Assembly: GCF_004010195.1 (NCBI RefSeq)
Contig: NC_057718.1
Span: forward strand, 65,844,770-65,908,769
Source: Chiloscyllium plagiosum
Taxonomy: Eukaryota
Direction: 5' to 3'
Length of the DNA: 64,000 bases
Below the pieces are notes generated by a model. That model saw only the letters and a list, made by a program, of their open reading frames with translations, did not search any database and was not told the origin of the DNA. Within the stretch, counting starts at the first letter, position 1, and each line of letters opens with the position of its first letter. A program made the translations under genes and the position numbers. Below are positions 1,301-56,500 of the stretch, piece after piece.

Positions 1301-1986
1301 GGTAACAACAATGACTGCAGATGCTGGAAACCAGATTTTGGATTAGTGGTGCTGGAAGAGCACAGCAGTTCAGGCAGCATCCAAGGAGCAGCAAAATCGA
1401 CGTTTCGGGCAAAAGCCCTTCATCAGGAATAAAGGCAGAGAGCCTGAAGTGTGGAGAGATAAGCTAGAGGAGGGTGGGGGTGGGGATAGAGTAGCATAGA
1501 GTACAATAGGTCAGTGGGGGAGGAGATGAAGGTGGCCTTTGGAAGTTTTTGCCTAATACCGACAAAATTGGCCTTTCTCCAATTTAAAACTTCAACTTTT
1601 AGATCTGGTCTATCTTTTTCCATCACTATTTTAAAACTAATGGAATTATGGTCGCTGGCCCCAAAGCCCTCCCCCATTGACCCACCTCAGTCAGGTAACA
1701 ACAATGACTGTTGTTGGTCCATCCCTGACCATGTTGGTCCATGTCAGGGTCCATCCCTGACCTCCGCCCTCCTCCCTGACCTATCACCTTCATCACCTCC
1801 CCCACTCACCTATTGTACTCCATGCTACTTTCTCCCCATCCCCACCCTCCTCTAGCTTATCTCTCCACGCTTCAGGCTCTCTGCCTTTATTCCTGATGAA
1901 GGGCTTTTTGCCCGAAACGTCGATTTTGCTGCTCCTCGGATGCTGCCTGAATTGCTGTGCTCTTCCAGCACCACTAATCCAAAATC
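1301..1986. mobile_element. Complex inverted insertion of PLE 3' terminus (family A, hammerhead-bearing) with captured flank
   Basis: Arm 1301-1533 (-) and arm about 1760-1986 (+) are inverted copies. TSD CACCTCAGTCA at 1290-1300 and 1987-1997. 1535-1710 duplicates 1142-1317. Confidence 0.85.
1893..1921 (+). ncRNA. Minimal type I hammerhead ribozyme motif (family A)
   Basis: CUGAUGA-A-GGGC-UUUUU-GCCC-GAAA-CG-UC, with predicted cleavage after 1921. Distal stem I pairing is possible between TTCAGGC (1871-1877) and GCCTGAA downstream. An intact mirror copy lies on the - strand at 1399-1426. Confidence 0.7.
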
Positions 1987-2661
1987 CACCTCAGTCACCT
2001 GCCCTGTCTTATTTCCCAAGGGTGGGTCAGGGTTTGCACCTTCTCTAGTAGGTACATCCACATACTGAATCAGAAAATTTTCTTGTATATGCTTAACAAA
2101 TTCCTCTCCATCTAAACCCTTAACACTACGGCAGTCCCAGCCTATGTTTGGAAAGTTAAAATCCCCTACCATCTATTATTTTTACAAATAATTGAGATCT
2201 CCTTACAAATTTGTTTCTCAATTTCCCTCTGACTGTTAGGGGGTCTGTAATACAATTCCAATAAAGTGATCATCCCTTTCTTATTTCTCAGTTCCACCCA
2301 AATAACTTCCCTGGATGTATTTCTGAAAATATCCTCCCTCAGTACAGCTGTAATGCTATCCCTTATCAAAAGCCTGACTTCCCCTACTCTCTTGCCTCCC
2401 TTTCTGTCCTTCCTGTAGCATTTGTATCCTGGAACATTAAGCTGCCAGTCGTGTCCATCCCTGAGCCATGTTTCTGTAATTGCTATAATATCCCAGTCCC
2501 ATGTTCCTAGCCATGCCCTGAGTTCATCTGCCTTCCCTGTTAGGCCCCTTGCATTGAAATAACTACAGTTTAATTGATCAGTCCTACCTTGTTCTCTGCG
2601 TTGTCCCTCCCTGCCCTGACTGTTCCCTGACTGTTTGGCTTGCTTCTTTTCTCAACTTTTA

Positions 2662-2977
2662 GATTAGATTTTTTTTTAGATTACATTACATTGTGGAAAC
2701 AGGCCCTTCGGCCCAACAAGTCCACACCGACCAGCCGAAGCGCAACCCACCCATACCCCTACATTTACCCCTTACCTAACACTATTTAGCATGGCCAATT
2801 CACCTAACCTGCACATTTTTGGACTGTGGGAGGAAACCGGAGCACCCGGAGGAAACCCACGCAGACACGGGGAGAACGTGCAAACCCCACACAGTCAGTT
2901 GACTGAGGCGGGAATTGAACCCGGGTCTCTGGCGCTGTGAGGCAGCAGTGCTAACCACTGTGCCACCATGCCGCCCA
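2662..2977 (-). mobile_element. tRNA-derived SINE (HE1/V-SINE-like), nested in CR1
   Basis: Head has an A box (TGGCACAGTGG) and a B box (GGTTCAATTCC). V-domain-like GTGGGTTTCCTCCGGGTGCTCCGGTTTCCTCCCAC. CR1-like 3' tail ending in (AATCT)n. Confidence 0.88.
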
Positions 2978-4794
2978 CAAACTGTACCAGCCTCAGACTG
3001 ATCTCTTTCCTCATTAACTTCCTGGGTCCCACTCCCCATCCCCCACCTTACTAGTTTAAATCCTCCCAAGCAGCTCTAGCAAATCTCCCTTCCAGTATAT
3101 TAGTCCCCTTCCAATTTGGTGCAATCCGTCCTTCTTGTACATGTCATTTCTATTGCAGAAGAGATTCCAATGATCCAAAAATGTGAATCCTTCTCCTATA
3201 CACCAGCTCCTTAAGCCATGCATTCATCTGCTCTATGCTCCTATTCCTATCCTCACTAGCATGTAGCACCAGGAGTAATCTAGATATTATTACTCTCGAG
3301 GACCTCCGTTTTAAATTCCTGCCTAACTCTTTCTGTCTTCTCCCTTCAGAATCTCAACCTTTTTTCTTCCTATGTCATTGGTTCCAATGCTTACAATAAC
3401 CTCCTGCTGGTCCCTCGCCCCCTTGAGAATTCTGCAACCTCTCTGAGACATCCTTGATCCTGGCACCAGGGAAGCAACCCACCATTCTGATTTTTCGCTG
3501 CTGCCTACAGAAATGTCTGTCTGTGCCTCGGACTAGAGAGCCCCCCTAACACAATCAATCTCTTGGAACCCGATATACCCCTCATTACATTAGAGCCAGT
3601 CTCAATACAAGAAACATGGCTATTCATGCTGAGACTGAATCCCCTGAGAATCCATCACTCCCTACATTTTCCAAAACAATGAACTTGTTTGAAATGAGGA
3701 TAGCCACAGAAGACTCCTGCACTATCTGCCAACCTCTCTTTCTTGGAGTTAACCCATCCATGCGACTGTATCAACAACTTTTCTCCCTTCCTAAAACTGC
3801 CAGCTATCACACCCCATTGCTCTTGTAAATTCCTCATTTCCTCTGACTGTCGCTCCAACAATTCCGTTCAATCTGATAGGATTCGCAACCAATGGCATGT
3901 ATTGCAGATATAATCCTCAGTAACATATAAACTCTCCCTAAACTCCCACATCTGACAAGATTATATCACTCAACCAAGGGACATTTTTGCTTCTTCCAAT
4001 CTGCAGATCCAGAAAATAGCCCCATCTTATTCCTCTACAAAATACTGCTCCAGGCTAACTTAATAGCTATGGCTTATATTTTAGGTTTAATCAAAAGACA
4101 TCTCTCAATAAAACATATTATCAAGAAAGAACCCACTCTATTCATTTCTGCAGATTTCCCAAGGCCACACTTCAAACTATTCACTTATCTGTGTCTGTGC
4201 TGTGACCGCTCCCAAACAGGTTCCTCCAAGATCAGTAGCGAATTTCACTGTTTGATAATTTTGCCAGATGCGCTCCGATATCCAGCGATATATTAATTCA
4301 ACAGCAAAGGCAGTAACTGCGCAGGTTCACTGCTCTGTCAGTTAGCAGTGTGGGTTTCTTTCTTTCTTTCTCTCGCTCTCTCTCTCTCTCCCCTGCACTG
4401 ACCTCTCCATGTGCTGCTTTAGTTTGTTCCTCTCCCATTTAAAAGTGCTGTTGGTTTGACTCTTTTTTTTCTCCAAAGTTCCAAAACAATGCAACAGCAT
4501 ATAAAACAGTAATGCTGCTCCTAGAATTCAAGGAAATCACCTTCAACACCTAAAATATCTCAAATAAGAAGCAGCCTGTTACAGCCAGAAATCTTTCCGG
4601 CAATCAGTTGGATTTTCATTTTGTGGAAGTTGTAGAAGCCTTACTGCTATAATTGCTTTAAAGCTTTGCCATTGTCTTTTTTTAAGTTATATTTCTTGGC
4701 ATTTGTCCAATTTTTGGTAAGACACTATCAATTTGCCTGAAAACAAATGTTAATTACTTCTATTGTCTTTTTGTATTTGAGATTAATGCATGCT

Positions 4795-7878: not shown

Positions 7879-8070
7879 AGTCAAAACGCGTGGCACTAGA
7901 AAAGCACAGCAGGACAGGCAGCATCTGAGAAGCAGGAGATAATCCCTTCATCAGCTTATGCCCGAAATGTCGACTTTCCTGCTCCTCAGATGCTACCTGA
8001 CTTGCTGTGCTTTTCCAGTGGCACACTTTTTGACCCTGATCTCCAGCATCTGCAGTCCTTGCTTTCTCCT
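7879..8070. mobile_element. Fold-back mini-insertion of PLE family A 3' end
   Basis: Inverted arms meet inside the hammerhead motif (cccttcatcag|cttatgcccgaaa). TSD ATGTTG(A/G)AGGTGCTG at 7864-7878 and 8071-8085. Confidence 0.85.
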
Positions 8071-8431: not shown

Positions 8432-8786
8432 GCACCCTCTATTCCATCACTAACTGTGTCTGGTGAAACATCAAGTGCTTACTCTTCACCAGAAAGCTCC
8501 AGGAGATCAATTGCATCTGAAGCTTCATCATCACAATATTCTGATCAGGGGCTTGCCTCTATTAATTCCTTCAGTTCTGATTTTGGGGTTCAGTACTTTA
8601 CATCTGCTTTGCAGCCCTGTGTGGGATCTTCACAGCAAGAAATATGTGAACCTGCACAATCTGACCAAAAAAGGATTACCACTGGATCACATGAGAACTT
8701 GACTGCAGAAACCCCACAGTTCACTCCTACTGGAGAAAATACCAGGACAGCAGAACACTTGACAGCTCTAACCACATCTGTGAGAG
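8432..8786 (+). CDS. IPCEF1: Internal coding exon (Ser-rich linker) of IPCEF1/CNKSR-family gene
   Basis: Acceptor ttttctaatcctgcAG ends at 8431 and donor AG|GTAAGC starts at 8787. Open frame APSIPSLTVSGETSSAYSSPESSRR...TTSVR+G. Ends in phase 1, which joins the 36169 exon as GAA (Glu). Non-repetitive sequence. Assigned by phase and position; the peptide is low-complexity and not recognised on its own. Confidence 0.7.
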
Positions 8787-8954: not shown

Positions 8955-9135
8955 ATCATGATTTGGAGATTCTGGTGTTGGACTGGGGTGTACAAAGTTA
9001 AAAATCACACAACACCAGGTTATAGTCCAACAGGTTTAATTGGAAGCACACTAACTTTCAAAGTGACGCTCCTTCATCAGGTGGTAGTCCCTGATGAAGG
9101 AGCGTCGCCCCGAAAGCTAGTGTGCTTCCAATTAA
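8955..9135. mobile_element. Fold-back mini-insertion, hammerhead family B (putative PLE terminus)
   Basis: Inverted arms centred near 9085. TSD TCCAT(C/T)GATA at 8945-8954 and 9136-9145. + strand core CTGATGA-A-GGAGC-GTC-GCCCC-GAAA-GC-TA at 9091-9119. Confidence 0.8.
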
Positions 9136-9396
9136 TCCATTGATAGATTTTTAATTCATCAGCCTTTCAAGCTGTCTGGGAAGGGTGATTGTAACACTTC
9201 TATGACTAAGATCAGTTAAACAAACAAAGAGATAGAATTGTCTTGAAACTTTCCGGTTTCCTTGGTGTATATCATTTAAGTCCACTTTAGACACTTATCC
9301 ATCTATCAATGATGTGCTCAATTCATATCACCAACATCATTTCAAATGATAGCAGCACAACTGCAATTGGGAGCACAGCATGTGGGAGTTACAATA

Positions 9397-9497
9397 AAGC
9401 TGAAAGTGCTGGAGAAACACAGTAGGGTTTCTGGCAGCATCTGTGGAGAAAGGAACAAAGTAATGCTTTGAATTTGTTATGACTGTTCCTCAGAATT
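9397..9497 (-). mobile_element. Degenerate PLE 3' terminus (family C-like)
   Basis: Resembles 27207-27340 (tgctggagaaa...ggcagcatctgtggag...ttcctcagaa). Confidence 0.5.
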
Positions 9498-12132
9498 TCC
9501 AGAAAAAAGCAACAGGCTCCACAAGCTCCTTGGTACTTGAAAAATGGTACAAGGTTGGAACACAATACTTTGTGTACAGAAAATGGGTCTTTGCATATAA
9601 ACTTATGTCACTTTGTGCAAGCATAAATGAGCAATAAGCATACTGAAAATCGTTCAGTTGGGGTTCCAAATTATAGAATCACATCTTAGAGTGGAGGTTT
9701 TGATCAATTTTGCAAGTGTGGGGTGGTTGGGAACAATCTGCATTCTTCTTTTGTGAACAACTGAAAAAGCGTATTGTTTAATTTGGTCAACAAATCACTG
9801 GAATATACAGCATACATAGGTCATTAGAGGCATTCTGGATGGAAACAGACCGTTCTGTCCAACTCATCCATGCCAACCAGATATACTAAATTAATCTAGT
9901 CCCATTTGCCAGCAATTGGCCCATATCCCTCGAGACTGTTCCTATTCATATACCTATCCAGATGCCTTTTAAATGTTGTCAATTGCTCCAGCCTCCACCA
10001 CTATCTCTGCCAACTCATCCCATACACACACCACCCTCTGCATAAAAAAGTTCCCCATTAGATCCCTTTTAAATATTTCCCCTCTCACTTTAAACATATC
10101 CCCTCTAGTTGTGGTCTCCCCACCCTGGGGAAGAGACCTTGTCTATTTACCCTATCCATGTTCCTCATGATTTTATAAACCTCTATAAGGTCACCCCTCA
10201 GCCTCTGATGGTCCAGGAAAGAAAGCCCAGACTATTCAGCCTCTCACTATAGCTCAAACCCTTCAACCCTGGCAACATCCTTGTAAATCTTTTCTGAACC
10301 CATTCAAGTTTCACAATATCCTTCCCATAGCAGGGATATGGCAGAACTGAATGCAGTATTCCAAAAGTAGCCGAACCAATGTCCTGTACAGTCGCAACAT
10401 GATCTCCCAACTCCTACACTTAATGTACTGACAATAAAGACAAGCATACTAAATGTTTTCTTTACTATCCGATTTACCTGCAATTCTACTTTCAAGGATC
10501 TATGAACCTGTCCAAGGTCTGTTTGTTCAGCAACAGTCCCCATGACCTTGCCATTCAGCGTATAAGTCCTGCCCTGATTTGCCTTTCCAAAATGCAGCAC
10601 CTCACATTTATCTAAATTAACCTCCTTCTGCCACTCCTCAGCCCATTGATCCATTTGATCAAAATGCCATTGTACTCTGAGTTAACCTTCTTTGCTGTCC
10701 ACTACGCCTCCCTTTGGTGTCATCCGCAAACTTACTAACTGTACCTTCCATGTTCACATCCAAATCATTTACGTAAATGATGAAAAGCTGTGGACTCAGC
10801 TCCAATCCCCCTGTGGCACATCACTGGTCACAGGCCTCCAATCTGAAAAGCAAAGCTCCACCACTACCCTCTCTTCTATGGCTAGTTGTCCCTGTATTCT
10901 GTGTGATTGAACCTTTACAACCAGTCTACCATGAGGAACCTTGTCGAACGTCTTACTAAAGTCTGTATAGATCACGTCCACTGCTCTGCCCTCATCAATC
11001 TTCTTCGTTACTTCTTCAAAAACTCAATTAAGTTAGTGAGACATGATTTCCCACATACAATGCCATGTTGACTATCCCTAATCAGTCCTTGCCTTTCCAA
11101 ACACATGTAAATCCTGTCCCTCAGGAATCTCTCCCCCAAAATTTGCCCATCAGTGATGTCAAGCTCCCTCGTCTATAGTTTCCTGGCTTTTTCTTACCAC
11201 CTTCCTTAAATAGTGGCACCACGTTAGCCAACCTCCAGTGTTTCGGCACCTCACCTGTGACTATCGATGATCCTAATATCTGAACAAGGGGCCCAGCAAT
11301 CACTTCCTTAGGCTCCCACAAAGTTCTAGGGTACACCTGATCAGATCCTGGGGGATTAATCCACTTTTATGCATTTTAAAACATACAGCACATCCTCCTT
11401 CATAATATGGATATTTTCCAAGATGTTGCTATTTATTTCCCCACATTCTGTATCTGCCATATCCTTCTCCACGGTAAACACTGATGCAAAATACTCATTT
11501 AGTATCTCCCCCATCTGCTGCAGTTCCACACATAGGCTACCTTGCTGATCCTTAAGGGCCCTATTCTCTCCCTAGTTACTCTATTGTCCTTAATGTATTT
11601 GTTGAATCCATTTGGGTTCTCTTTAATCCTATTTGCTAAAGCTATCTCATGTCCCCTTTTTGCTGTCCTGATTTCCCTCTTTAGTGTACTGTTACTGCCT
11701 TTATACTCCTTGGGATTCACTCAATTCCTGCTGTCTATATCTGACATATGCTTCCTTCTTTTTCTTGACCAAAACCTCAATTTCTCTAATCATCCAGCAT
11801 TCCTTACACATATCAGCCTTGCCTTTTACCTTAACAGGAACATACTGTCTCTGGACTCTTGTTATCTCATTTTTGAAGGCTTTCCATTTTCCACTCGTCC
11901 TCTGCCTCCAATCAACTTTTGAAATTTTTTTTGCCGAATACCATCAAAATTGGCATTCCTCCAATTTAGAACTTTAACTTTTAGATCTGGTCTATCCATT
12001 TCCATCACTATTTTAAAAGTAATAGAATTGTGGTCACTGGCCCCAAAGTACTCCCCCACTGACACCTCAGTTACCTGCCCTGCCTTATTTCCCAGGAGTA
12101 AGTCAAGTTTTGCACTTTCTCTAGTAGATATA

Positions 12133-12306: not shown

Positions 12307-12514
12307 TATCTACATACTAATCAGAAAATGTTCTTGTACACACTTAACAAATTCATCTCCAAACAAGCCCTTAAAAATATGGCAGTCATAGTCTATGTTT
12401 GGAAAGTTAAAATCCCCCAGCATAGCCACCCTATTATTCTTACAGAAAACTGAGATTTCCTTACAAATTTGTTTCTCAATTTCCTGCTGACTATTGGGGG
12501 GAGTGGGGGGAGTG

Positions 12515-14659: not shown

Positions 14660-15929
14660 ACATTCCCCTGAGAGGCCATCATCTCCTATATTTTCCAAAA
14701 CAGCATTCTTGTTTGAGATGGAGATAGCTACAGGAGACATCTGTATGACCTGCCTCCCTCTTCTACCTTTCCTGATGGTAACCCATTTACCTGACTGTAT
14801 CTTCGGTTTATGTCCCTTCCTATAACTGCCACCCATCACACCCACTAGCTCCTGTAAATTCCTCATTGCCTCTAACTGCCATTCCAACCTATCAATATGA
14901 TCCAATAGGATTTGCAACCAAACACACTTACTGCAGACATAATCATCATTAACATGGAAACTCTCCCTACTCTCCCACATCTGACAGGGAGAGCACAACA
15001 CTCTACTAAAGGCTATCTTTGCACCTTAACAGTCTATAGACCCAGCCTTACTGCTCTATGAAACACTGCTCAAGACTAACTTAGTACCTATGTTTTATGT
15101 TTTTAAAACTCAATAAAGAGACAGATTTAAATAAAACATATAATCAAAAAGGAACCCATTCAATTCAATATTGTAGATTTACAAAATAAATAGTATTACA
15201 CTTTAAAAAGCCACTTAGCTGCTCCCTGCTGCGAGCTCTCCCACACAGGTTTCTCTAGGGTCAGCTGTGAATTTTGTTAATTTTTCTTAGATGGCTCCAA
15301 TGTCCAGAGATACTTGAAATCAAATAGCAGAACAATCAGCTGTGTAGATTCACTGCTGAGTTAGGTAACCGTGCAGGTTTATTTGTCTGATTGATTTATT
15401 TCCCAAGTAGTCACTGCCTTTGTCTTACTTCTTCCTTTTCAAAGTACCATTGTTTTGATCTGTTTTTTTTCCCAAAGTTCCAAAACAATGTAACAGATTA
15501 TAAAACAGTATTGACCACTCCTAGAATTCGAGGAAATCAGCTCCAGTACTGATAATATCTCAGAAAAGGAGCAGCTCTTCCAGCCACAACTTTTTTCCCA
15601 TCCTCCATCTTGGATTACCCAGCATCCTTTTGTGACAATAAAATTCATGCAGAATGTTCCTTGATCATGTGATAGATAGAAAGTTTTCTTGGACTGACAG
15701 TAGCTTCCTGTTAGTGGAAAATACCATATACTTAGTCACTGCATAGTCACAGCTAATAGCTACATGATCAACTGATTTAAGGTAACTAATCATGCTTCTC
15801 ACATATCTCATTTAGTTTGAGTCTCCAATAACTGTAACCATCTTCCTTTGCTCTAGGTATTATTCCTAGGAGAGTAGTCCCTCATCCCCATTGATTTCAA
15901 TTTTTTGAGGACTCTTTGATACCAAACAT

Positions 15930-16015
15930 GATCAAGAGTCACTGGACTCAAAATTTTAACATTTTTTTTTCCATAGATGCAGCTGCATCCCCTGATTTTC
16001 TCCAGAAATTTATGT
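15930..16015 (+). mobile_element. Degenerate PLE 3' terminus (family C-like)
   Basis: GAGTC-ACTG-GACTC stem II remnant followed by ...ccatagatgcagc..., as in the reverse complement of 27240-27340. Confidence 0.45.
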
Positions 16016-16019
16016 TTTT

Positions 16020-16615
16020 GATCAAATACTGCCTCATGTCAAGGGTAGTTGCTCTTATCTCACTCCTTGAGTTTTGTTCTTTTGTCCATGTTTGAACCCA
16101 AGGCCATTACGAAGTCTGGTGTCAAATGGACCTGATGAAACTCAAACTGAGCATTCATGAGTAGGTTATTGCGTAGGTGTCAATTGATAGCATTGTAGAT
16201 GGTCCCTTCCTTTGCTTTGAGTAGAGTAACGGAGCAGTAATTCAATGGTATGGATTATTCCATCTTTCTAAGTGAACAAAACATTAGAAATTTTCTACAT
16301 TTTCATTGTAAATATACCGAAGCGTCTTGGCAGTAGACCTGTAGCATAAATCTTTATTACTAACAGGACATTGTCAGTGCCCAGATCCATTGCTGCATAC
16401 AATGCCTTCCACCATTTCTTGAAATCATGTAAAATTAACTAAATTAGCAAAAAACTGTATTGCTGGGTATTTAAGGATGGACTGGGATGGATCATCGATT
16501 AGATTCTTCTGACTGAAAATGTTTGCAAATGCTTCATCCTTGTCTTTTGCACTAACAAGCTGGGTTCTGTCATTATTGAGGATTGGGAAATTTGTGAATT
16601 CTCCTCCTCCAATGT
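16020..16615 (-). mobile_element. Old LINE RT fragment (CR1/L2 superfamily, second family)
   Basis: Collinear similarity with 29260-29930 and 39250-39620. Confidence 0.6.
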
Positions 16616-21560: not shown

Positions 21561-21929
21561 TTTCAATCCTTCTGTAGTTGAACTTGTGCCATTAAACTTC
21601 TTCTGCCTTTGCCTACATACTTTTCTTATTAGCTCACAGCGACTACCAGAGCTCCAACACACAACTCCGGTTTCATTTCTTACCCCTCCACATGGGGCTG
21701 TTTTTTTTTTTCACAGAGTTGAAAAGACTCCACAAATCTTTAAAAATAGTGGCTGTGTTCCAAGTACAACGTCCTGTCCCCTTCCTGATAAATCCAATTT
21801 TTTGTCAACATAGGAAGGAGATCAGGGTGTGATTCACTTAAGTGGGAAACCTGAACTCAGCATCTGCAATCAAACCAGTTTTGACTGTTACAAGAGTCTT
21901 AGCACATTGTGTGGGATCATAAATTGATG

Positions 21930-22025
21930 GAGTTGAGAGTATAGTGCTGGAAAAGCACCGCAGGTCAAGCAGCATCCGAGGAGCAGGAGAATTGACGTTT
22001 TGGGCATAAGCCCTTCATCAGGAAT
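21930..22025 (-). mobile_element. PLE family A 3' terminus with hammerhead motif (GAAA mutated)
   Basis: Reverse complement reads attcCTGATGAagggcttatgcccAAAAcgtc. Confidence 0.8.
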
Positions 22026-27206: not shown

Positions 27207-28385
27207 AAAAACAGAAGTGTGGGTGCTGGAAATCAGAAACACAAACAGAAATTGCTGGAAAAATTCAGCAGGTCTGCCAGCATCTGTGGAGAGAAAGCAG
27301 AGTTAACGTTTTGGGTCCAGTGACTTTTCTTCAGAACTAATTTTATCAAGAAAAACGTCAATACATATGCTGAAGATGGGGTGAGCGGAGGTGAGAGGAG
27401 TAATCGCTAGATTACTGGTGCCCAGAGAGAGACAACAACTTCAGCCTGGGAAAATTAATAGCCGCTAATGGGGACCTTTACTGACAATGGGTTGTTTGTG
27501 GTGGCAGCTCATATGTATGGGGGTTAGGGTAAGGACCTGGGAGAATGTATTCAAGTCTTAATTTATTGAATCCTGAAGGCTGCAAGTTCCTTAAGTGGAA
27601 AATGAGATGCTGTTCTTCCAGTTTGCATCGAGCTTTGCTGGAGCACTATAGCAAGCCCAAGTCAGAGGTGTTGGGCAGGGAACAGTGGTGTGTTGAAGTG
27701 GCAGGCAACAGGAAGCTCACGGTCACTTTTGTGGGCAGAAGGTAGGTGTTCTGCAAAGCAGGTTGTCTATTCTGCATGTTGTCTCCCTAGTATGGAGCAG
27801 ACCACATCGTGAGCAATGAATACAGTACATTAGATCGAGTAAAGTGCAGGTAAACTGCTGCTGGGAGCTAGGATAGTGAGGAGGAGGAAGTAAATGGGCA
27901 GGTTTTACACCTTCTGGTGAATGGGAAAGTGCATTGGGGGTGTGGGGAAGTGTTGGAAGTGGAGGAGGAGAAGACCTGGAGGGAATGGTCCTTGTGGAAG
28001 GCTGACAAGGGAGGGTGGGCGAATATGCGTCTGGTGGTGGATTTCTGCTGGAGATGGTGAAAATGGTAGCTAACGATCTGTTGGATGTGGACACAGTTAC
28101 GGTAGTAAGTGAGGAACAGGGGGATCCCTATTGCTGTTGTGGGAAGGGAAAAAGAGGATGACGGCCAAAGTGCTGGAGATGAGTCAGATACAACTGAGAG
28201 CCCTGTCAACTGCAATGGTGGTGAATCCTTGATTAAGAAAGAAGGTGGACATTTTGGAGACCACCTTAAAGAAGTTGACATCATTGGAACATATGTGACA
28301 GAGACAGAGAAACAAGAAGAATGGAACAGAGTCTTTATAGGAAACAGGGTGTGAAGATGTATAGTTGAGGTAACTGTGGGAGTCT
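27207..28385 (-). mobile_element. 5'-truncated Penelope-like element (family C): RT thumb, GIY-YIG endonuclease and hammerhead terminus
   Basis: SHSYLNYTSSHP, IPLFLTYY, RRCKTC and MYCIHCSRCGLL motifs. The 3' end reads agttCTGAAGAaaagtc-actg-gaccc-aaaa-CG-TT-aact. Confidence 0.85.
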
Positions 28386-28513
28386 TGATGAAGCATTGCT
28401 GACTCAGCCCCATTTCACTAGGCACTTCCAAGTACTCCTCAATCTCCTCCTTAATAATGAACTCTAAAATCGTACCAACGACCAAAGTCAGGCTAACTGG
28501 CCTATAGTTTCTT

Positions 28514-28600
28514 GTTGAGAATGTGGTGCTGGAAAAGCACAGCAGGTCAGGTAGCATTCAAGGAGCAGGAGAATCGACGTTTCGGACAAAAGCCCTTCAT
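28514..28600 (-). mobile_element. PLE family A 3' terminus fragment
   Basis: Reverse complement reads ATGAagggcttttgtccGAAACGTCgattc, truncated inside the CUGAUGA box. Confidence 0.8.
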
Positions 28601-29945
28601 AAACCATTTGTTTATGTGGCGAGTCCAGTTGAATTTCTGGTCAATGGTAACCTTCAGAATGTTGACATTGGGGAATTCAGTGATGGCAACACCACTGAAT
28701 GTTAAGGAGCATTGATAGATTGTCTCTTGGTAGCATTTGTGTGACGTGATTGTTACTTGCCACTTGTAAGTCCAAGCCTTGATATTGTCCAGATCTTGTT
28801 GCATTTGAAAATGGACTACTTCAGTAACTGAGGAGTTGTGAATGGTGTTGAGCATTTGTACAATCATTGGCAAACACCCCCATTTCTGACCTTAAAATGG
28901 AGGGAAGGTCAATGATGAAGTGGCTGAAGATGATTTCAGCTGACAATATTACCCTGAAGAACTCCTGGACTATGATGATTGACCTTCAACATCCACAACC
29001 ATCTTATGATGTGTCAGTTATAGAACATAGAACAATATTGTGCCAAGTAATAATCTTAATCTTAATCTAAGACACCCCTCAATTTACTGCCGTCCATGTG
29101 TTTGTCCAGCAGTTGCTTAAATGTCCCTATTGTCTCTGACTCTACTACCACCACTGGCAGTGCATTCCACGCACCAACCACTGGTATGAGACCAACCGAG
29201 ATTTTACTCCTTATTCCTAATGATAACACTTTTGCTAGGACTCCTTAATGCCACTGTCATTTGAATGCAACCTTGATGTCAAGGGCTGTCACATTCACCT
29301 CACCTCTGGAATTCAGCAGTTTGCTCATTTTTGAACCAATGCTATTAAAAGGTCAGGAGTTGAATGGCCCTGGCAGATCCCAAACTATCAATTGAGGAAG
29401 TGAGCTATTAGAGAGTGAATAAAAATGGATATTGATGAATAATTATCAAATGCTTGATAACACTGTCGATGATACATTCCATCACTTTACTGGTGATCAA
29501 GAGTATACTGATGGAGCAGTAATTGGCCGGGTTGGATTTGTCTAGATTTTCACATACAGGACACACCTGGGCAATGTTGGATAGATGCCAGTGTTGTAGC
29601 TGTACTGAAACAGGTCAGCTAGGGGAGTGGCAAGTTCTGGAAAACAGGTCTTCAGCACTAGTGCCAGAACACTGCCAGGGTTATTAGCCTTTGCATGATC
29701 CAGTGGCTGTATCTGTTTCTTGATAGCATGTGGAATAAACTGAATTGGCTAAAGATTGACACGTGTGGTGCTAGGAAACGCTGGAAGAGGAGAGATGGTC
29801 ATCCACTCGGCACTTCTGGCTGAAGATTGTTGCAAATACTTCAGCCTTATCTTTTGCACTGACATCCTGGACTCTTCCTTCATTGAGGATGGGGGTATTT
29901 CTAAAGCCTCCTTGTCCAGTGTTTCTAATCGGCTGCATTGGTAAT
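28601..29945 (-). mobile_element. Old LINE RT fragment (CR1/L2 superfamily) with a nested CR1 3' tail (about 29020-29185)
   Basis: MQQDLDNIKAW..KWQVT...ILKVTIDQKFNWTRHIN. Confidence 0.75.
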
Positions 29946-35492: not shown

Positions 35493-35680
35493 ATTTGGAA
35501 ATGCTGGTGTTGGACTGGGGTGTACAAAGTTAAAAATCACACAACACCAGGTTATAGTCCAACAGGTTTAATTGGAAGCACACTAGCTTTCGGAGCGACG
35601 TTGAAGGAGCATTGCTCCGAAAGCTAGTGTGCTTCCAATTAAACCTGTTGGACTATAACCTGGTGTTGTGCGATTTTTAA
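35493..35680. mobile_element. Fold-back mini-insertion, hammerhead family B
   Basis: About 68-bp near-perfect inverted arms. Exact TSD CATGATATGGAATG at 35479-35492 and 35681-35694. Confidence 0.9.
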
Positions 35681-42799: not shown

Positions 42800-42932
42800 G
42801 ACAAAAGTGAAGACTGCAGATGCTGGAAACCAGAATTTAGATTAGAGTGGTGCTGGAAAAGCACAGTAGGTCAGGCAGCATCCGAGGAGCAGGAAAATCG
42901 ACATTTCAGGCAAAAGCCCTTCATCAGGAATG
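42800..42932 (-). mobile_element. PLE family A 3' terminus with hammerhead motif
   Basis: Reverse complement reads cattcCTGATGAagggcttttgcctGAAAtgTCgatttt. Confidence 0.85.
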
Positions 42933-45615: not shown

Positions 45616-45802
45616 ATCAACTTTAAGCCTGTAAATCATACAGTTATAGACATAGATGTATAGAGTACACAAAAATATCCTTCAGCCCGTCAAGTCTGCA
45701 CCAATCAAAAACAAGAACCTAACTATCCTAATTCCATTTTCCAGCACTCAGCCCACAGCCTTGCATGCCTTGGCATCACAAGTTACATAACAGGTTAAAA
45801 GT

Positions 45803-46008
45803 CACACGACACCAAATTATAGTCCAATAGGTTTATTTGGAATCACAAGCATTTGGAGCACTGCTGCTTTGTCAGGTGAAATTCACCTGAGGAAGGAGCA
45901 GCACTCCGAAAGCTTGTGATTTCAAATAAACCTGTTGGACTATAATCGGGTGTCATGTGACTTCAGATCTTGTCCACCCCAGTCCAACAGTAGCACGTCC
46001 ACATCATG
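45803..46008. mobile_element. Fold-back mini-insertion, hammerhead family B variant
   Basis: Inverted arms centred near 45880. + strand motif TCAC-CTGAGGA-A-GGAGC-AGC-ACTCC-GAAA-GC-TT-GTGA (45883-45919) with a 4-bp stem I. TSD unclear. Confidence 0.8.
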
Positions 46009-46134
46009 CCTTACAGGCAGTTGTAGACATCAGTTGAACTTATTATGAATTTTAAATAAATATTTTACAAATTGGAAAAATGTTTCATGAGCATGGAAAC
46101 ATTCTGAATCATTGTTCACCCTCTCCATACAATC

Positions 46135-47391: not shown

Positions 47392-48500
47392 GGAATGAAC
47401 AGCAGCCGATGAGTGGCAGATGGAGCTTAATTCAGATAAATGTGAGGTGCTACATTTTGGAAAGGAAAATCAGGGCAGGACTTAGACACATAATGGTAAG
47501 GTCCTGGGGAGTGTTGCTGAACAAAGACACCTTGGAGTGCAGGTTCATAGCTCCTTGAAAGTGGAGTATCAAGTAGATTGGATAGTGAAGAAGCTGTTTG
47601 GTACGCTTTCTTTTATTGGTCAGAGCACTGAGTATAGGAATGTTATGCCTGTACAGGACATTGTTTAGACCACTTTTGGAATATTATGTGCTATTCTAGT
47701 CTCCCACCTATAGGAAAGATGTTGTGAAACTTGAAAGGGTTCAGAAAAGCTTTACAAGGATGTTGCCAGGGTTGGAGGATTTGAGCTACAGGGAGAGGCT
47801 GACTAGGTTGGGGCTATTTTCCCTGGAGCATTGGAGGCTGAGGGTGACTTATAGGGGTTTATAAATTCATGAGGGACATGGATAGGGTGGATAGGCAAGG
47901 TATTTTTTCCCTGGCTTGTGGGAGTGGCACTCTAGTTGGGAGATCATGTTGTGGCTGTACAGGACATTGGTTAGGACACTTTAGGAATATTGCATGCAAT
48001 TCTGGTCTCCTTCCTATCGGAAAGATGTTGTGAAACCTGAAAGGGTTCAGAAAAGATCTACAAGGATGTTGCCAGGGTTGGAGGATTTGAGCTATAGGGA
48101 GAGGCTGAACAGGCTGGGGCTGTTTTCCCTGGAGCATTGGAGAGGTGACCTTACAGACGTTAATAAAATCACGGGGGCATAGATAGGGTAAATAGGCAAG
48201 GTCTTTTCCCTGTGGTGAGGGAGGTTTAGGATGAAAGGGGAAAGACTTAAAAGGGACCTAAGGGGCAACCTTTTCATGCAGAGGGTAGTGCATATATGGA
48301 ATGAGCTGCCAGAGGAAGTGTTGGAGGCTGGTACAATTACAACATTTAAAAGGCATTTGGATGAGTTTATGAATATGAAGAGTTTAGAGGGACATAGGCC
48401 AAGTGCTGGCAAATGGGACTAGATTAACTTAGGATATCTAGTCAGCATGGACGAGTTGAACCAAAGGATCTGTTTCTGTGCTATACATCTCTATGACTCT
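47392..48500 (+). mobile_element. CR1 3' fragment with internal duplicated segment
   Basis: QFWSPSYRKDVVK.ERVQK region occurs twice, followed by NLFMQRVVHIWNELP and a ctatgact tail. Confidence 0.88.
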
Positions 48501-49869: not shown

Positions 49870-52760
49870 ACATGCCCCTTTTTGTCAAGTTAGGCTATGG
49901 AGAGTGTACCAGATCATTATGATATGGGACAGTCTGTCTCGGGTGAACTGTATTGCACTGCCTGACTGGTTTGGAGCTATGATCTTCACCTTCAGAGGCC
50001 CTATGGTCTATTCTACAATGGACTTTGTAGAGGAATGCTGTGCAGATTTGTACCTCTCCTCAGCGTCAGTCTGTGGATTTCTGACCATTGTCGTGAGTCA
50101 GAATCTGACAGAATAGACCTTGTCACTGAACAACCATCCCAGGAGAGCTAATAAATGCAGGTCGAGAGTGTGGTGCTTGAAAAGCTGCCGGTCAGGCAGC
50201 ATCTGAGGAGCAAGGCAAAAGCCCTGCATCAGGAATGAGGCAATCCACATTGATGCAGTGGGGTTAGAGGGTTCCGAGGCAGAAGATTAGACATTCTTTG
50301 TCAAGGCGTCAGGTGGTTATGGAGTGGCAATGGAGGAGACCCAGGACCTGCGTGTCCTTGGCAGAGTGGGAGGGGGAGTTGAAGCATCCAGTCACAGGGC
50401 AGTGGGGTTGGTTGGTGAGGGTGACCTGGAAATGTTCTCTGAAGTGCTCCTGTCTCCCCAATGTAGAGGACATTGCATTGAGAGCAACAGATACAGTAAA
50501 TGACGTGTGGAAGTGCAAGTTGGTGGGGTGGAAGGTGAGGACTGGGGGATGGGGGGGGGCAGGCTTCTGTCCTTGTGTTTGGAAGGGTGAGGTTCAAGGG
50601 AGGAGGTGTGGAAAGTGGATGAGATGCGCTGGAGGACATCAACAACCATGTGGGAGGGGAAATTGCGGTCTTTAAAGAAGGCCATCTGGTGTGTTCTGTG
50701 GTGTAACTGGTCCACCTGGGAGTAGATGCGGTGGAGGCGGAGGAGTTTGGAATAAGTGATAGCATTTTTACAAGAGGCAGGGTGGGAGGAGGTGTAGCTC
50801 AGGCAGCTGGGGGGGGGTCAATGGATTTGTAAATGTCCATGTTGAGTAGGTCACCGTTGATGGAGATGGAGAGATCCACCAGGGACAACAAATCCCTATA
50901 CACCTCCATCCACCATGACAAGGGCTTCCAAGCCTTCCATTTCTTCCTCTCTGGATGTCCCCACCAGTACCCTTCCACTAACACTCTCATTCATTTAGAT
51001 ATATTGGTCCTCACCCTCAACAATTTCTCCTTTGAATCCTCCCATTTCCTCCAGGCGAAAGGGCATTGGCACCCGCATGGGGCCCAGCTATGCTCGTCTC
51101 TTTGTCAGTTATGTGGAACAGTCCATCTTCCGCAGTTACACCAGCACCATTCCCCACCTTTTCCTTTGCTACATTGCACCACCTTGTGCTCCCTTGTTGT
51201 GGTTGAACAGTTCATCAACTTCAACAACACATTCCACCCTGACCTTAAATTCACCTGGACCATCTCTGACACCTCCCTCCCCTTCCTGGACCTCTCCATC
51301 TCCATCAATGGTGACAACTGTCATCTTCTACAAACCCATCAACCCCCACAGCTATCTGGATTATACCTCCTCCCACCCTGCCTCCTGTAAAAATGATATC
51401 TCTTATTCCCAATTTCTCTGCCTCCACTGCATCTACTCTCAGGAGGACCAGTTCCACCACAGAACACACCAGATGGCCTCCTTCTTTAAAGGCTGCAATT
51501 TCCCCTCCCTCTTGGTTGATGATGCCTCCAGCGCATCTCATCCACTTCCCGCACCAACTCCCTTGAATCCTACCCCTCCAAACACAACAAAGACAGAACC
51601 TCCCTAGTCCTCACCTTCCACCCCACCAACCTCCGTATACATCGCATCATCCTCCGCCATTTCCGCCACCAAACGGACCCCACCACCAGAGTTACATTTC
51701 CCTCCCCACCTCTATCTGCTTTCTGTAAAAACCATTCCCTCTGCGTTTCTCCCCATCAGGTCCACGCCCCTGAACAACCCATCCTCCCCTCCCGGGACCT
51801 TCCCCTGTCACCATAGGAATTGCAAACCTGCACCCTCACTTCCCCCCTCACCTCCATCCAAGGCCCAAAGGAGCCTTCCATATCGATCAGAGTTTCACCT
51901 GCACTTCCACACATTATTTACTGTATTCGATGCAGTCTCCTCTACATTGGGGAGACCGGGTGCCTACTCGCAGAGCACTGCAGAGAACACCTCGGGGACA
52001 CCCGCACCAACCAACCCCACTGCCCTATGGCCAAACACTTCAACTTCCCCTCCCACTCCACGAAGCACATTCAGGTCCTGGGCCACCTCCATCGCCACTC
52101 CGTAGCCACTCGATGCCTCGAGGAAGAACGCCTCATCTTCCACCTTGGGACCCTCCAACCCACAGCATCAATGTGGATTTCACCAGCTTCCTCATTTCCC
52201 CTCCCCCACCTTACCCCAGTTCCAACCTTCCAATTCAGCACCACCCTGATGACATGTCCTACCTGCCCGTCTTCGTTTCCACCTATCCGCTCCACCATCC
52301 TCCCTGACCTATCACCACTACCCGCACCTCCATCTACCTATCGCACTTTCAGCTACTTTCCCCCAATCCCACCCATCCCCGTCCCATTTATCTCACCATT
52401 CTCTTGGCTCACAGCCTCATTCCTAATAAAGGGCTTTTGCCCGAAAAGTCTCTTGCTCCTCAGATGCTGCCTGATCTGCTGTGCTTTTCCAGCAACACAC
52501 TCTCAACTCTAATCCCCAGCATCTACAGTCCTCGCTTTCACCTAATAAGTGCAGGTGTTGAGTGCTCCAAAATGTAGACTTTGTGACATGTACAAAGCTG
52601 CATTATCTGCTGGAATGGGCACAGAAGATCAGCATATGCATATAGCAGAAGCCTTTCCAGTTCCTACTTCCTGTTGGAGAACCGCATTATTATCAGGTCT
52701 CTGTGGGTACAATCAAGCACAATTTGCCCCTGTACAAATGCTGCATTGGTAGCAAGGACA
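49870..52760 (-). mobile_element. Harbinger (PIF/HARBI1-type) DDE transposase remnant split by the PLE at 50163-52541
   Basis: Manual translation. Right part: LDCTH...NWKGFCYMHM (cf. IDCTH...NRKGFHSINVQ). Left part: GWLFSDKVY...RNPQTDAEERY...HSSTKSIVE*TIG.LK...SGSAIQFT...LHSL (cf. WLLGDxGY...EExYN.AH..TR..IE..IG.LK...GGALQY...LHN). Stops present. Confidence 0.8.
50163..52541 (+). mobile_element. Penelope-like element family A: RT, GIY-YIG and hammerhead 3' end (about 50880-52541, +) with an inverted 3' copy at its 5' side (50163 to about 50880, -)
   Basis: SLYTSI, LTLNNFSF, MGPSYARLFV, HPDLKFT, FLDL, YLDYTSSHP and IIYCIRC..LYIGET...EH...HF motifs. TSD CTAATAA(A/G)TGCAGGT at 50148-50162 and 52542-52556. 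Frameshifted. Confidence 0.92.
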
Positions 52761-53048: not shown

Positions 53049-53184
53049 GCATTCCTGATGAAGAGTCTATGCTCAAAATGTCAACTCTCCTGCTCCTCAG
53101 ATGCTGCCTGACTGGCTATGCATTTCCAGCACCACACTTTTTGACTCTGATCTCCAGCATCTGTAGTCCTCTCTCTCTCCTAGT
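53049..53184 (+). mobile_element. PLE family A 3' terminus, solo 136-bp insertion
   Basis: Begins about 6 nt before CTGATGA. Exact TSD TGAGACTCAAG at 53038-53048 and 53185-53195. Confidence 0.88.
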
Positions 53185-53568
53185 TGAGACTCAAGACCAC
53201 CTGGAATCTTGTCACCAAATTGACTGGATCCCAGAACTCAAACTGATTGGAACTCAGTCCTGACTTGATTCCAAATCCCTAGACTAACTGGAGCCCAGCC
53301 TCTAGTTCAACTGAACTGCAGTCTCCAAACTGACCGCAGCACACTGACTACTGGACTTACAGAAGCACCCTGGACTTATGGGATACAATAACTCCACCCC
53401 CAAATAAATTGACTACAGCACACACTTGCCTGTTATCCTTCTTTGTCTTCACTTCATTCGTGGTTCCATGCAGCTCACGCACAGACACTCCCTATTTACC
53501 ACATGTGGTTTCATGCTCTTCATGTCCACTGTATTTGGGAAGGTGACAATGTGAGTTACAGTGAGTAT

Positions 53569-56500
53569 TATTATGACACAGAGGTGAACCTTTTCTGATA
53601 ATTAAACCAAAAAGTAGCTAATTCACCCTTCAATTTCATCATCGTCTTCTTGTAGCAGTACAGCTCCAATTCCTATATCGCTGAAAATCACACTATACTA
53701 GGTAATAGTCCAACAGGTTTATTTGGAAGTACTAGCTTTCGGAGCACTGCTTCTTCATCAGGTAGCTGATGAAGGAACAGTGCTCCAAAACCTAGTGCTT
53801 CCAAATAAATCTGTTGGACTATTACCTGATGTTGTGTGATTTTTAACTATCTCAACCCGAGTGCAACACCGGCATCGCTACATCCTATACCGCTAGCATC
53901 GATTGCAACTTTGAAAGGTTTCAAAAATATTGGTGTAACTAAAACTGGTACTGTGGTTAATATGGCTTTTAAATTCTCAAATGCCTCCTCACATTGTTCT
54001 GTCCACCAAGATTTTGTGATCTTCTTTAATCAATCCATTAGTGGTACCAAAACGTTGCTGAAATTTAGAACAAACATCCAGTAGAATCCGTTTAATCCCA
54101 AAGATTGATGCACCTCTTTCTTTGAGGATGGTCATGGAAATTCCTCGATGGCCTTTGTCTTCACATTCCTTGGAGTCAAACTTACATGTCCGATGTTATG
54201 TCTCAAGAACTTCATGAATTCTACTTTCTTTAAGTTTATTAAGCTTCTCGTAATCATTCAATGAGCTCTGCCAACTGTACCATGTGATCTTTCTATAACT
54301 CGCTAAGGATCACTGCATCATCTAGATAAACTGCACAACTTGTTAATCCAGCCATAACTCTGTTCATGAGACTTTGGAATGTGGCTGGTGGGTTCTTCAT
54401 TCTATAGGGCATCGCTTTGAATTGATATAGGCATTTGGGATTACAAACACAGAAACTTCTTTTGCTTTCTCTGATAGATACCTGCCAGTAACCACGCAGT
54501 AAATCTAACTTCGTTGTGTAAGTGGCTTGACAAACTTTCTCCATACAGTCCTCCAATCTTGGTATTGGATGGGAATCTGATTCTGTTACAGCATTGACCT
54601 TCCAATAGTCTATACAGGTTTGGGAACCAGCACAATCGGTGAACTCCACTCACTCTGACTTGGTTCAATATCTTCATTGAGTATCACATTCATTCTTTCT
54701 GGACCTGTATGACTGAGAGGATTAAGTTACTAGGGGTATTGTTTTATTGGAACAGCACTTCCTACTTCCACCTCATGCACAATAGTATTAGTCCTCCCCA
54801 TCTTATTCCTGCATAGGTCCTCATAGAACTGTAACAGACTTTTCAACTCAGTTCTTTGCTCCTGAGACAGACAGCTCACTAACCTATCCCACTCCTCAAG
54901 GGCTTCCTCATTATTTAACATATTTTGAGGCACATCAAAATTCACATCATCTGGATTTGATTCCTCACTCTACAGAGCAGTAACTGACACCTGTTTCTCC
55001 AGTTCCCTGCCTATTATAGTAAGGTTTAAAATAATCCACATGACATTGATACAGTTTTTTACCAGACAGTTTACCTGACTCAACTTTTTCTCTCTTTGAT
55101 AGGGGCCACTAAACCTGGCTTTGAAGGGATCTCCTACTACTGGTAACAATACTAATATGTCATCTCCACAGGAAAACAGTCAAATTTTAGAGTTTTATCT
55201 AACATCTGCTTCATACTATGCTGTGCTCTCTCCAGGCACTGTTTAGCTAACTCACCTGCAAGATTTAAGTTTTCCTTCACCTCAGATACATAATCCAAGT
55301 GTTAGATCTCCAACTTTGGTCCTATCAATTTTTCTTTAATTAATTTCAAATGCCTTTTTCTTCATGTCCAAATATTAACTCAAAGGGACTAAACTGAGTA
55401 GATTCATGTGGGGTATTTCTGATGGCAAACAATATGAATGGGATACCTTTATCCCAATCATTCAGATAATCCTGACACTACACTTTTAACATGGTCTTCA
55501 GGGTCTGATGCCACCTTTCAAAGGCTCCCTGGGATTCAAGATGATACTCACTTGATTTAAAGTGCTGTTATGGCTAAACTATTCATGACTTCCTTAAACA
55601 GCTTCGCAGTAAAATTAGACCCTTGAATCTCTCTGGGTAGCCCATATCAGGTAAAGAAAGCTACTAACTCCTCCACCACTGCTTTTGCCTTAATACTCAG
55701 TAATCTGGTAGACACATCCATTATGGTTAGTAGATATTGGTTCTCACTTTTAGTTTTAGGGGAAGGGGACCTACACAATCAATCACAACTCATGTGAAAG
55801 GTCCTTTAAATGCAGGAATTGGCAATGAAGGTGTTGTTTTTATTACTGCCTGTGGCTTACCTACCATTTGGCATGTATAACATGTATGGCAAAATTTAAC
55901 CACATTCTTGTGTGGTCTAGGCTAATAGAAGTGCTTTTGTACCTTAGCCTGAGTATTCCTCACACCTAGACGACCTCCAACTGGTAATCCATATGCTACC
56001 TGTAATACTTCCTGTCTGTATGCCACCGGCAACACAATCTGGTGCACTTCCGTCCATTTCTCCACTGCACTAACCTGCTGTGGTCTCCATTTTCATCTTT
56101 GGATTCGATTTTTAAGATAATTAACCCTCAGGAATCCATTCTGATTCCTTTTCTGAGAATGCATCAATAAATATATCTTTTATTGTCTCATCTTGCTGTT
56201 ATAAGTCCATTAGCCTTTCAGGACTAAACACTGACCCTCTGACCCTCAGGTTTTTCCTGCACCATTACATCAAACAGGATATCCACTAACTGAACCTCAA
56301 CTTCTTCATCTTTCTCTTTAGATTTTCCCTTATTGGGGTGACTTATGACAGTGGGAACTTGTTACAACAGAGTCTGGAAAACTTCCAGGGTATTTGTCTT
56401 TTAACTCCTCGGTTCCCTGGTTCTCCTTTGGCTTCTCCACCACAAGGGGCGACACTCCCACTTTGGATCCTGCCAGATTGTTCCCAAGAACAAACTGTAT

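Follow-up and report, generated by a model that had tools for sequence, protein, structure and literature searches.

Minimal hammerhead ribozymes (min-HHRs) are present in the pseudo-LTRs (pLTRs) of metazoan Penelope-like elements (PLEs), as reported by Cervera and de la Pena in 2014 (PMC4209133), and about 4,000 such motifs were counted in coelacanth and 9,000 in Xenopus. In the literature, PLE motifs cleave weakly, as dimers or aided by the protein of the element, and the two 3' ends correspond to two start sites of reverse transcription. Animal non-LTR retrozymes are short units derived from PLEs that carry type I hammerheads, and they include one from a chondrichthyan genome (bioRxiv 10.64898/2026.07.22.740005). 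Cartilaginous fish are absent from the species lists examined in PMC4209133. Our literature search on shark PLE hammerheads, which covered listings and abstracts but no subscription papers, found nothing on point.

In this study, we analyzed a 64,000-nucleotide stretch of shark DNA, called the window, whose named best protein matches are from Chiloscyllium. A sequence-only reading had described three families (A, B and C) of minimal type I hammerheads of PLEs whose stem III is only a palindromic tetramer, and the boxes, the tetramer and the PLE context agree with it. The layouts given there for the three motifs agree with the sequence, as does the cut predicted after position 1921. The motifs share type I topology, the CUGANGA box with an extra base, the G10.1-C11.1 pair, the GAAA box, the palindromic 15.2-16.2 tetramer and the U-H site with the min-HHRs of PMC4209133, and their layout matches the published consensus (Fig. 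S3 of that paper). The core of the Acropora digitifera Neptune motif is nearly that of family A. The presence of several families per genome, the predominance of single motifs from truncated elements and the close pairs on opposite strands are also common to both. Unlike the published motifs, family A has a short helix II (4 bp), and its window copies carry a mismatch in helix I. The motif is real but belongs to a class known since 2014, and the shark adds a lineage, not a principle.

We concluded, with a probability of about 0.88, that the elements are 3' ends (pLTR plus optional tail) of Penelope-like retrotransposons that carry the known minimal type I hammerhead and decayed after insertion. 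What was observed directly for this reading is the motif, its position downstream of the ORF, the head-to-head pairs with one tail, the target-site duplications (TSDs), the covariation of helix I and the decay.

Element ends and their decay

A profile search with nhmmer detected 21 arms in the window (10 of family A, 8 of B and 3 of C), which make up 14 insertions, 7 of them head-to-head inverted pairs (Table 1). At each of the 16 positions cited earlier, one of the three repeats is present; the total is higher than the roughly 16 termini proposed, and most cited sites proved to be minus-strand copies or inverted pairs, the head-to-head pairs being all four sites of B and three of A. Over 63,029 called bases, the density was one arm per 3.0 kb and one insertion per 4.5 kb. 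The earlier figure was about one per 4 kb; motifs passing our hammerhead descriptor occur once per 12.6 kb.

Table 1. Element ends and ribozyme motifs of the window
Feature	Position	Strand	Support	Remarks
Left arm of inverted pair A1 (family A), 3'-tailed	1301..1534	-	nhmmer, inverted repeat, TSD 1289-1300/1986-1997, tail	
Intact family A min-HHR	1395..1430	-	descriptor, sequence	C3 1426; predicted cut between 1399 and 1398
Flank and tail copy between A1 arms	1535..1710	+	repeat family	copy of 1142-1317, 99% identical
Right arm of inverted pair A1 (family A), untailed	1785..1985	+	inverted repeat, nhmmer	
Intact family A min-HHR	1889..1925	+	descriptor	C3 1893; predicted cut as given in text
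Inverted pair A2	7879..8070	.	nhmmer, sequence, TSD 7864-7878/8071-8085	junction within ribozyme, both arms incomplete; plus arm tailed
Inverted pair B1	8955..9135	.	descriptor, sequence, tail; TSD not above chance	minus arm (C3 9080) passes descriptor, tailed; plus arm (C3 9091) has both boxes, helices broken
Family C solo end, decayed	9395..9499	-	nhmmer E 5.5e-26 (copy itself in seed)	
Family C solo end, decayed	15929..16028	+	nhmmer, sequence	first box truncated
Family A solo end	21928..22025	-	nhmmer, sequence	starts at helix I edge; G12A
5'-truncated family C element	27210..28390	-	tblastn, sequence	thumb/linker/GIY-YIG remnant 28384-27565, then decayed min-HHR 27338-27301 (C3 27334): G12A, two mismatches in helix II, helix I of 4 perfect pairs
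Family A solo end	28508..28602	-	nhmmer, sequence	truncated within first box
Inverted pair B2	35493..35680	.	sequence, TSD 35479-35492/35681-35694	junction cost both first boxes; minus arm tailed
Family A solo end with tail	42800..42931	-	descriptor, sequence	starts at helix I edge; motif (C3 42927) with boxes intact, G-U substitutions in helices II and III
Inverted pair B3	45795..46010	.	descriptor, sequence, tail; TSD not above chance	plus arm (C3 45887, motif 45883-45919) intact, 4-bp helix I, tailed; minus arm decayed
Inverted pair A3	50163..52541	.	tblastn, sequence, TSD 50148-50162/52542-52556	minus arm: ORF remnant 50808-50249, motif (C3 50232) half deleted; plus arm: remnant of RT, linker and GIY-YIG at 50878-52230, motif (C3 52423) decayed, tailed
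Family A solo end with tail	53049..53184	+	TSD 53038-53048/53185-53195, sequence	G12A; TSD fixes 5' boundary just upstream of helix I
Inverted pair B4	53683..53882	.	sequence, TSD 53671-53682/53883-53894	plus arm tailed, G12A; minus arm (C3 53761) with both boxes, helix II mismatch

Both core boxes (CUGANGA and GAAA) and the U-H cut site were kept in 7 of the 21 arms as read by eye (4 of B and 3 of A). The descriptor, which demanded perfect boxes, at least 3 pairs in helix II and at least 2 in helix I, was passed by five arms (1426-, 1893+, 9080-, 42927- and 45887+). An earlier, stricter version skipped family A because it demanded 3 helix I pairs. A Watson-Crick palindromic tetramer was also retained in only three arms (1426-, 1893+ and 45887+), and all three have the extra A between A9 and helix II and the G10.1-C11.1 closing pair. 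In 42927- and 9080-, the tetramer has decayed to wobble forms. None of the three family C copies is intact or has G12, so a GAAA box in this family is inferred.

The strict descriptor matched five times in the window and never in any of 12 second-order Markov controls; with one core error permitted, the window still gave 5 matches and the controls 0-2 each. Chance resemblance within repetitive DNA would fit a short motif, an empty Rfam result and folds of which only one in five beats its shuffles. It is nevertheless extremely improbable given these controls, the covariation outside the search pattern and the fixed position behind PLE ORFs. The Rfam search over the whole window, with E up to 10, returned 7 weak matches and no hammerhead family. 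The top match, mir-143 (30.8 bits against a cut-off of 60), was rejected as merely inverted pair B1.

The window copies are mostly decayed remnants. There is no same-strand tandem of two intact motifs: the intact plus-strand motifs, which belong to different families, are separated by 44 kb, and 41.5 kb lies between the intact minus-strand motifs of family A. Long hairpins over the core were predicted for the inverted pairs. Because intact same-strand tandems are lacking and the core is buried in the hairpins of the inverted pairs, the copies are probably inert and most are probably unable to cleave. A dense, working ribozyme system is not supported, with 16 of the 21 arms outside the descriptor and intact same-strand tandems absent.

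The three fully intact arms, the plus-strand host-gene exons that the window seems to contain and the detection of family A sequence on both strands of a shark-type RNA run would suit a co-opted role in which 1893+ and 45887+ cut host transcripts. We regard this as very improbable. Each of these motifs has an inverted partner that would fold over it and no same-strand partner nearby, and youth alone accounts for the intactness of pair A1 because its arms are 97% alike.

ORF remnants and insertion structure

Homologs found by tblastn cover 50878-52230(+), 50808-50249(-) and 28384-27565(-). The motifs of families A and C lie on the sense strand, 255 and 231 nt downstream of the ORF end, respectively, which supports the link of these two families to RT/GIY-YIG ORFs made from sequence alone. 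Pfam recognized RVT_1 in five of six longer homologs and GIY-YIG in all six, and neither RT nor GIY-YIG in the 9 window fragments of PLE ORFs; an RT with a C-terminal GIY-YIG is attributed to A and C via the homologs that align over these fragments. The homolog alignment and the window frames contain a CX4CxxC linker and two cysteines within the GIY-YIG motif. The Cys and His residues of a CX2-5CxxC linker knuckle and of the endonuclease CCHH are conserved in the homolog alignments, and the window frames show them across frameshifts. A linker knuckle with cysteines inside GIY-YIG is the Neptune/Nematis layout (PMC8557442). These motifs suggest that A and C are remnants of Neptune-like PLEs, the choice between Neptune and Nematis being by motifs alone. 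Compared with the Neptune-clade EN+ PLEs of PMC8557442, all window copies are broken fragments. Poseidon belongs to a different clade and has no linker knuckle (PMC11167929).

No ORF accompanies family B in the window, and tblastn gave no match near its copies there; a PLE-type tail, inversion and target duplications are present. A PDB sequence search with a full-length homolog gave no match, and a protein-based search of metagenome contigs yielded 164 candidates, none confirmed. RNA runs were absent among the matches listed in a sequencing-run search with 50860-52560. By eye, the peptide following the motif did not clearly resemble the N-termini of 60-odd long homologs. In PAc, the Poseidon element of Anolis carolinensis, the ORF starts within the motif (PMC11167929); the window has no 5' pLTR-ORF junction for comparison. 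Open frames 8432-8785 and 36171-36356 are seemingly exons of a plus-strand host gene, and Pfam, PDB and Atlas gave no identity for the latter.

In all seven inverted pairs, one arm only has the longer 3' end, in six of them by about 33-40 nt. TSD scores of at least 9 were obtained for 5/7 pairs and 1/7 solos, against 2/294 random position pairs. In family B, one arm is tailed in all four pairs and the TSD is above chance in two. PAc likewise has its hammerhead in the pLTR and two 3' ends separated by a tail (PMC11167929). Each inverted pair would probably represent two cDNAs primed on both strands of one staggered cut. Every arm continues through the cut site, so the RNA template of these insertions was probably uncut or rejoined; insertions of PAc likewise extend past theirs (PMC11167929). 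In the active parent element, two motifs would pair via their palindromic tetramers, build stem III and cut after U-H. Once inserted, copies would decay neutrally, most of them becoming unable to cleave.

The short ends, those of B above all, might instead be a non-autonomous PLE derivative of 130-210 nt, retrozyme- or MITE-like, transcribed and copied by PLE enzymes. A start inside the motif or at most about 10 nt upstream of the first box is seen in all 8 arms of B and in 6 of the 10 of A, the four B insertions are self-contained palindromes, and such retrozymes are reported in vertebrates, the chondrichthyan included (bioRxiv 10.64898/2026.07.22.740005). Retrozymes, however, are head-to-tail tandem arrays of units that each carry an intact hammerhead, whereas 21 of 21 arms here are solo or head-to-head, and no tandem array of short units was among the repeats listed for the window. 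The four B junctions are all distinct in sequence and position, which fits independent joinings rather than one copied master, and in A and C the same ends are also joined to long ORF remnants. We therefore consider this derivative quite unlikely and retain the reading as PLE 3' ends.

The 5' edge at helix I

Most copies begin at the upstream edge of the motif, which is a fresh lead. In 16 of the 21 arms, the start lies inside the motif or no more than about 10 nt upstream of C3, and in none past the cut site. Sequencing reads accumulate at the edge of helix I, and the best-supported loose end in three runs is 1430, where an A precedes C3 by four bases. In both A and C, this A sits within YYANWYY (chance rate 1.25% per position), which we take to be an initiator-like consensus. 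A 3' splice site at this edge, as in D. virilis, was rejected for family A, there being no AG before 1430.

We tentatively propose that the 5' edge of helix I is a fixed RNA 5' end. Reverse transcription from two internal sites of the 5' pLTR would run off there and produce a cDNA of about 95-135 nt that resembles a strong-stop product. A solo end would arise from one such cDNA, and a head-to-head pair from two, one primed at the tail site and the other, on the opposite strand, at the inner site. The edge could also come from reverse transcriptase stalling on the folded motif or from endonuclease cleavage at ATT, and subfamilies that differ in upstream sequence may contribute some of the read signal. 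If the proposal is true, a fixed RNA 5' end would explain solo and inverted pLTRs, an open point of PLE biology, and the ribozyme would be uncut on the template strand used. A literature search, which covered listings and abstracts but no subscription papers, found nothing on point that links PLE 5' ends to a ribozyme or start site.

The very high copy number is a natural record of the PLE transposition cycle. The start and end points of thousands of insertions can test both the origin of solo and inverted pLTRs and ribozyme cutting on the copied RNA, a question left open by the in vitro anole work (PMC11167929).

Ribozyme folding and covariation

The stem III tetramer is ACGU in A and C and AGCU in B. 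Helix I of family A is weak in the window, with 2 pairs, one mismatch and 1 further pair; a variant completing the third pair made up 22% of depth in run X12, 7% in X16 and <1% in X2. The predicted active dimer was less stable than alternative folds in family A (-13.3 vs -24.6 kcal/mol) and family B (-15.1 vs -21.5 kcal/mol). The preferred rod predicted for the family A monomer (-11.4) pairs the first box with the cut site, and one of five folded motifs was more stable than its own shuffles. No pile-up of molecule ends was seen among the ends listed for sequencing reads, from libraries poorly suited to reveal one.

Such folds, which disfavor the active form, and the run of all window arms through the cut site could mean that the motif persists for protein binding, as a promoter or as a structural signal, with incidental self-cleavage. 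In anole Poseidon, ribozyme mutants had no effect on in vitro insertion and RNA-seq showed no read ending at the cut site, but the motif cleaves with protein and core mutations abolish activity (PMC11167929). The catalytic boxes, U-H site, palindromic tetramer and helix I are, moreover, kept jointly across many families and phyla. A purely signaling role is thus unlikely, and we favor a PLE motif that was catalytic in the parent element.

Exact patterns for families A and B gave no match among viral contigs. A core-only pattern detected a family-A-type core in 122 metagenome loci, and helix I shows compensatory changes among them. Since the pattern sets helix II and the boxes, only helix I provides an independent test beyond the window. 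Among 45 cluster representatives, pairs 1-3 of helix I form in 40, 41 and 38, against cross-cluster rates of 0.74, 0.58 and 0.44. In a 20-row alignment, with the B row one column out of register, the helix I covariation score was 0.526 against 0.146 shuffled (0/500 shuffles as high) and at most 0.106 with slid partners. The compensatory change suggested earlier thus holds across families for helix I once outside families are added. PLE ORF remnants were found in 25 of the 122 loci, and in 24 of these the ORF ends 83-570 nt upstream of the motif on the same strand.

Census of the motif copies and helix I covariation

The sequence-only reading had placed about 16 Penelope-like element (PLE) ends in three hammerhead families. 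All 16 cited sites were confirmed as copies of three short repeats, and the families stood, but the count rose: a search with profiles built from window copies gave 21 arms (single element ends; A 10, B 8, C 3), excluding weaker matches that were A/C cross-matches or had E >0.1. These form 14 insertions, of which seven are head-to-head pairs and seven are solos; together they cover ~5.6 kb or 9% of called bases with boundaries that we set. The claim that core boxes are kept held for 7 of the 21 arms, in which both boxes and U-H were read, and failed for the remainder. Three arms, 1426-, 1893+ and 45887+, were fully intact. G12 was absent from all three family C copies, and in the remaining arms the motif was truncated inside, deleted across or core-substituted. 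Small internal deletions removed or abutted the predicted cut site in three of ten family A arms (7954-, 50232-, 52423+). A descriptor with perfect boxes, at least 3 pairs in helix II and at least 2 in helix I matched five arms, no other window site and nothing in each of 12 Markov controls; with one core error allowed, the window still gave five and the controls 0-2 each. An Rfam search of the window matched no hammerhead family.

Since three families are too few for a covariation test, metagenome contigs were searched with a pattern fixing the boxes and helix II base and leaving helix I free. This yielded at least 127 motifs in at least 122 loci and at least 46 clusters. Among the matches listed, helix I pairs 1-4 formed in 40, 41, 38 and 29 of 45 representatives, with cross-cluster rates of 0.74, 0.58, 0.44 and 0.39. 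A 20-row alignment (3 window rows plus 17 chosen from 41 helix I types among the matches listed) had both-sided changes at all four pairs. In agreement with the proposed covariation, helix I scored 0.526; shuffling gave 0.146 (none of 500 shuffles as high), and sliding the partners gave 0.106 or less. These rows are related and hand-picked, their helix II was fixed by the search pattern, and family B's row was one column out of register. PLE ORF remnants occurred in 25 of 122 loci among the matches listed, and in 24 of these 25 the ORF ended 83-570 nt upstream of the motif on the same strand. A family-A-type core is therefore also found in PLEs of other datasets.

Carrier elements and predicted capacity to cleave

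The motif agreed feature by feature with the min-HHR consensus in the excerpted PMC4209133, whose Acropora Neptune motif is nearly identical to family A. That paper reported in 2014 that single vertebrate genomes hold thousands of copies, that the motifs fall into several families, and that they occur both solo and as pairs on opposite strands; cartilaginous fish were not found in its species lists, and a 2026 retrozyme preprint includes one (bioRxiv 10.64898/2026.07.22.740005). Judged from its sequence, the window motif belongs to the PLE min-HHR family and would work in the same manner.

Families A and C had been linked to RT/GIY-YIG ORFs, and the link held: in both, the motif shares the ORF's strand and lies past its end, by 255 nt in A and by 231 nt in C. 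Six longer homologs of these remnants were scanned with Pfam, giving RVT_1 in five and GIY-YIG in all six; the window fragments by themselves matched neither. The two named best matches of a GIY-YIG fragment were Chiloscyllium punctatum proteins, which makes a shark the probable host. Alignments revealed a linker cysteine knuckle and two cysteines inside the GIY-YIG motif, the layout of Neptune/Nematis (PMC8557442, excerpt), a likeness seen in motifs. Family B had no ORF in the window; it was placed among PLEs because of its one-sided tail and target duplications.

About 50 nt 3' of the motif are common to A and C (1922-1985; 27232-27300; profile cross-matches), with differing helices, and are absent from B. 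In family C this stretch contains CAG-ATG as well as a pyrimidine tract and a sequence resembling a branch point; these may mark a 3' splice site ahead of an ORF start.

The window copies probably do not cleave: for a cis dimer, one strand must carry two intact motifs, and no such neighbours occur here. In folding models, which leave tertiary contacts out, transcripts of inverted pairs in either direction formed hairpins with energies from -81 to -474 kcal/mol; the motif was largely buried in the five short pairs shown. The family A monomer was predicted to prefer a rod in which the first box and the cut site pair. Predicted active dimer folds reached -13.3 (A) and -15.1 kcal/mol (B), against -24.6 and -21.5 kcal/mol for the best alternatives. 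Low activity of such motifs (PMC4209133) and protein dependence of cleavage (PMC11167929), both from excerpts, agree with these folds.

Insertion anatomy and the 5' boundary

One arm was longer at its 3' end in all seven pairs, by ~33-40 nt in six. This extension is the one-sided tail of PLEs (excerpts of PMC8557442, PMC3846280), and the anole tail sits between two RT start sites (PMC11167929, excerpt). Target duplications of 11-15 bp scoring at least 9 flanked five of the seven pairs and one of the seven solos, compared with 2 of 294 random pairs; the other six solos and inverted pairs B1 and B3 scored no higher than chance. Inverted pair A1 sits within a LINE fragment. At the centre of this pair (1535-1784), 176 nt repeat the adjoining flank and the start of the tail at 99% identity, accompanied by short local duplications; this pattern suggests that the target site served as a repair template while the element inserted. 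Head-to-head motif pairs also occurred in metagenome loci L031, L037, L070, L089 and L098, and 19 of 126 motifs, among the matches listed, had an inverted copy of the downstream segment within the same locus.

Sixteen of 21 arms started inside the motif or up to ~10 nt upstream of C3, five reached at least 100 nt upstream, and none started beyond the cut site. Sequencing runs, from species that may differ from the window's, were mapped to 1285-1545 at 82% likeness, placing 73,660 contigs (X12), 2,382 reads (RNA run X16), 9,350 contigs (X2) and none from X17. Family A is thus very abundant in shark-type data. X16 reads fell on both strands. Of 70 differences, the 40 listed include loop II, the free N7 position and position 3 of helix I; at this last site, a variant completing a 4-bp helix took 22% of depth in X12. 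No molecule-end pile-up was listed, contigs and fragmented polyA reads being no gauge of cleavage.

In all three runs with data, depth dropped ~3-fold from bin 1420-1428 to 1429-1437, with no such fall at the cut site. Among loose ends, 1430, the helix I 5' edge, had the most support (1,183 contigs, 414 reads, 257 contigs). Flanks beyond it were mixed (agreement 0.34-0.47), and their consensus opened like the upstream of a second A subfamily, so the signal is partly due to subfamily divergence. Three solo A copies in the window start at this edge, one fixed by its TSD. Among the matches listed, some metagenome families clustered more loosely 10-25 nt upstream, others little. Arm starts and depth together indicate that the copied RNA was uncut or rejoined and that cDNA often ended at the motif edge. 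We prefer a transcription start at the motif's 5' edge; A at -4 in families A and C fits an initiator consensus. In line with this reading, an internal promoter that includes an initiator is reported for D. virilis (PMC2377424, excerpt). RT stalling may instead explain these ends, as may an endonuclease cut at ATT, where the anole element's enzyme reportedly cuts. A literature search found no paper on 5' ends at a ribozyme edge or start site.

Other contents of the window

The window is repeat-rich eukaryotic DNA. Two open frames resemble exons of a host gene on the + strand. The second is similar in reading to the C-terminal region of IPCEF1/CNKSR proteins, and Pfam, PDB and Atlas gave no identification for it. 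The two LTR-retrotransposon-type remnants point in opposite directions.

Coding remnants and other features by window position
Feature	Position	Strand	Remark
PLE coding remnant	50878-52230	+	tblastn with homologs
PLE coding remnant	50808-50249	-	tblastn with homologs
PLE coding remnant	28384-27565	-	tblastn with homologs
Assembly gap, 971 N	12515-13485		within LINE fragment
Open frame	8432-8785	+	bounded by AG/GT
Open frame	36171-36356	+	bounded by AG/GT
Decayed LTR-retrotransposon-type remnant	about 53900-58100	-	RT (Pfam RVT_1, 54296-54649)
Decayed LTR-retrotransposon-type remnant	60850-62700	+	integrase (rve, 61479-61847)
CR1/L2-type LINE fragments, many	1-4600, 10100-15600, 18500-20800, 44570-45130, 47400-48500
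LINE endonuclease domain	2169-2651		Pfam
Short interspersed repeat	2690-2977, 37784-37990, 45159-45473, 46140-46452
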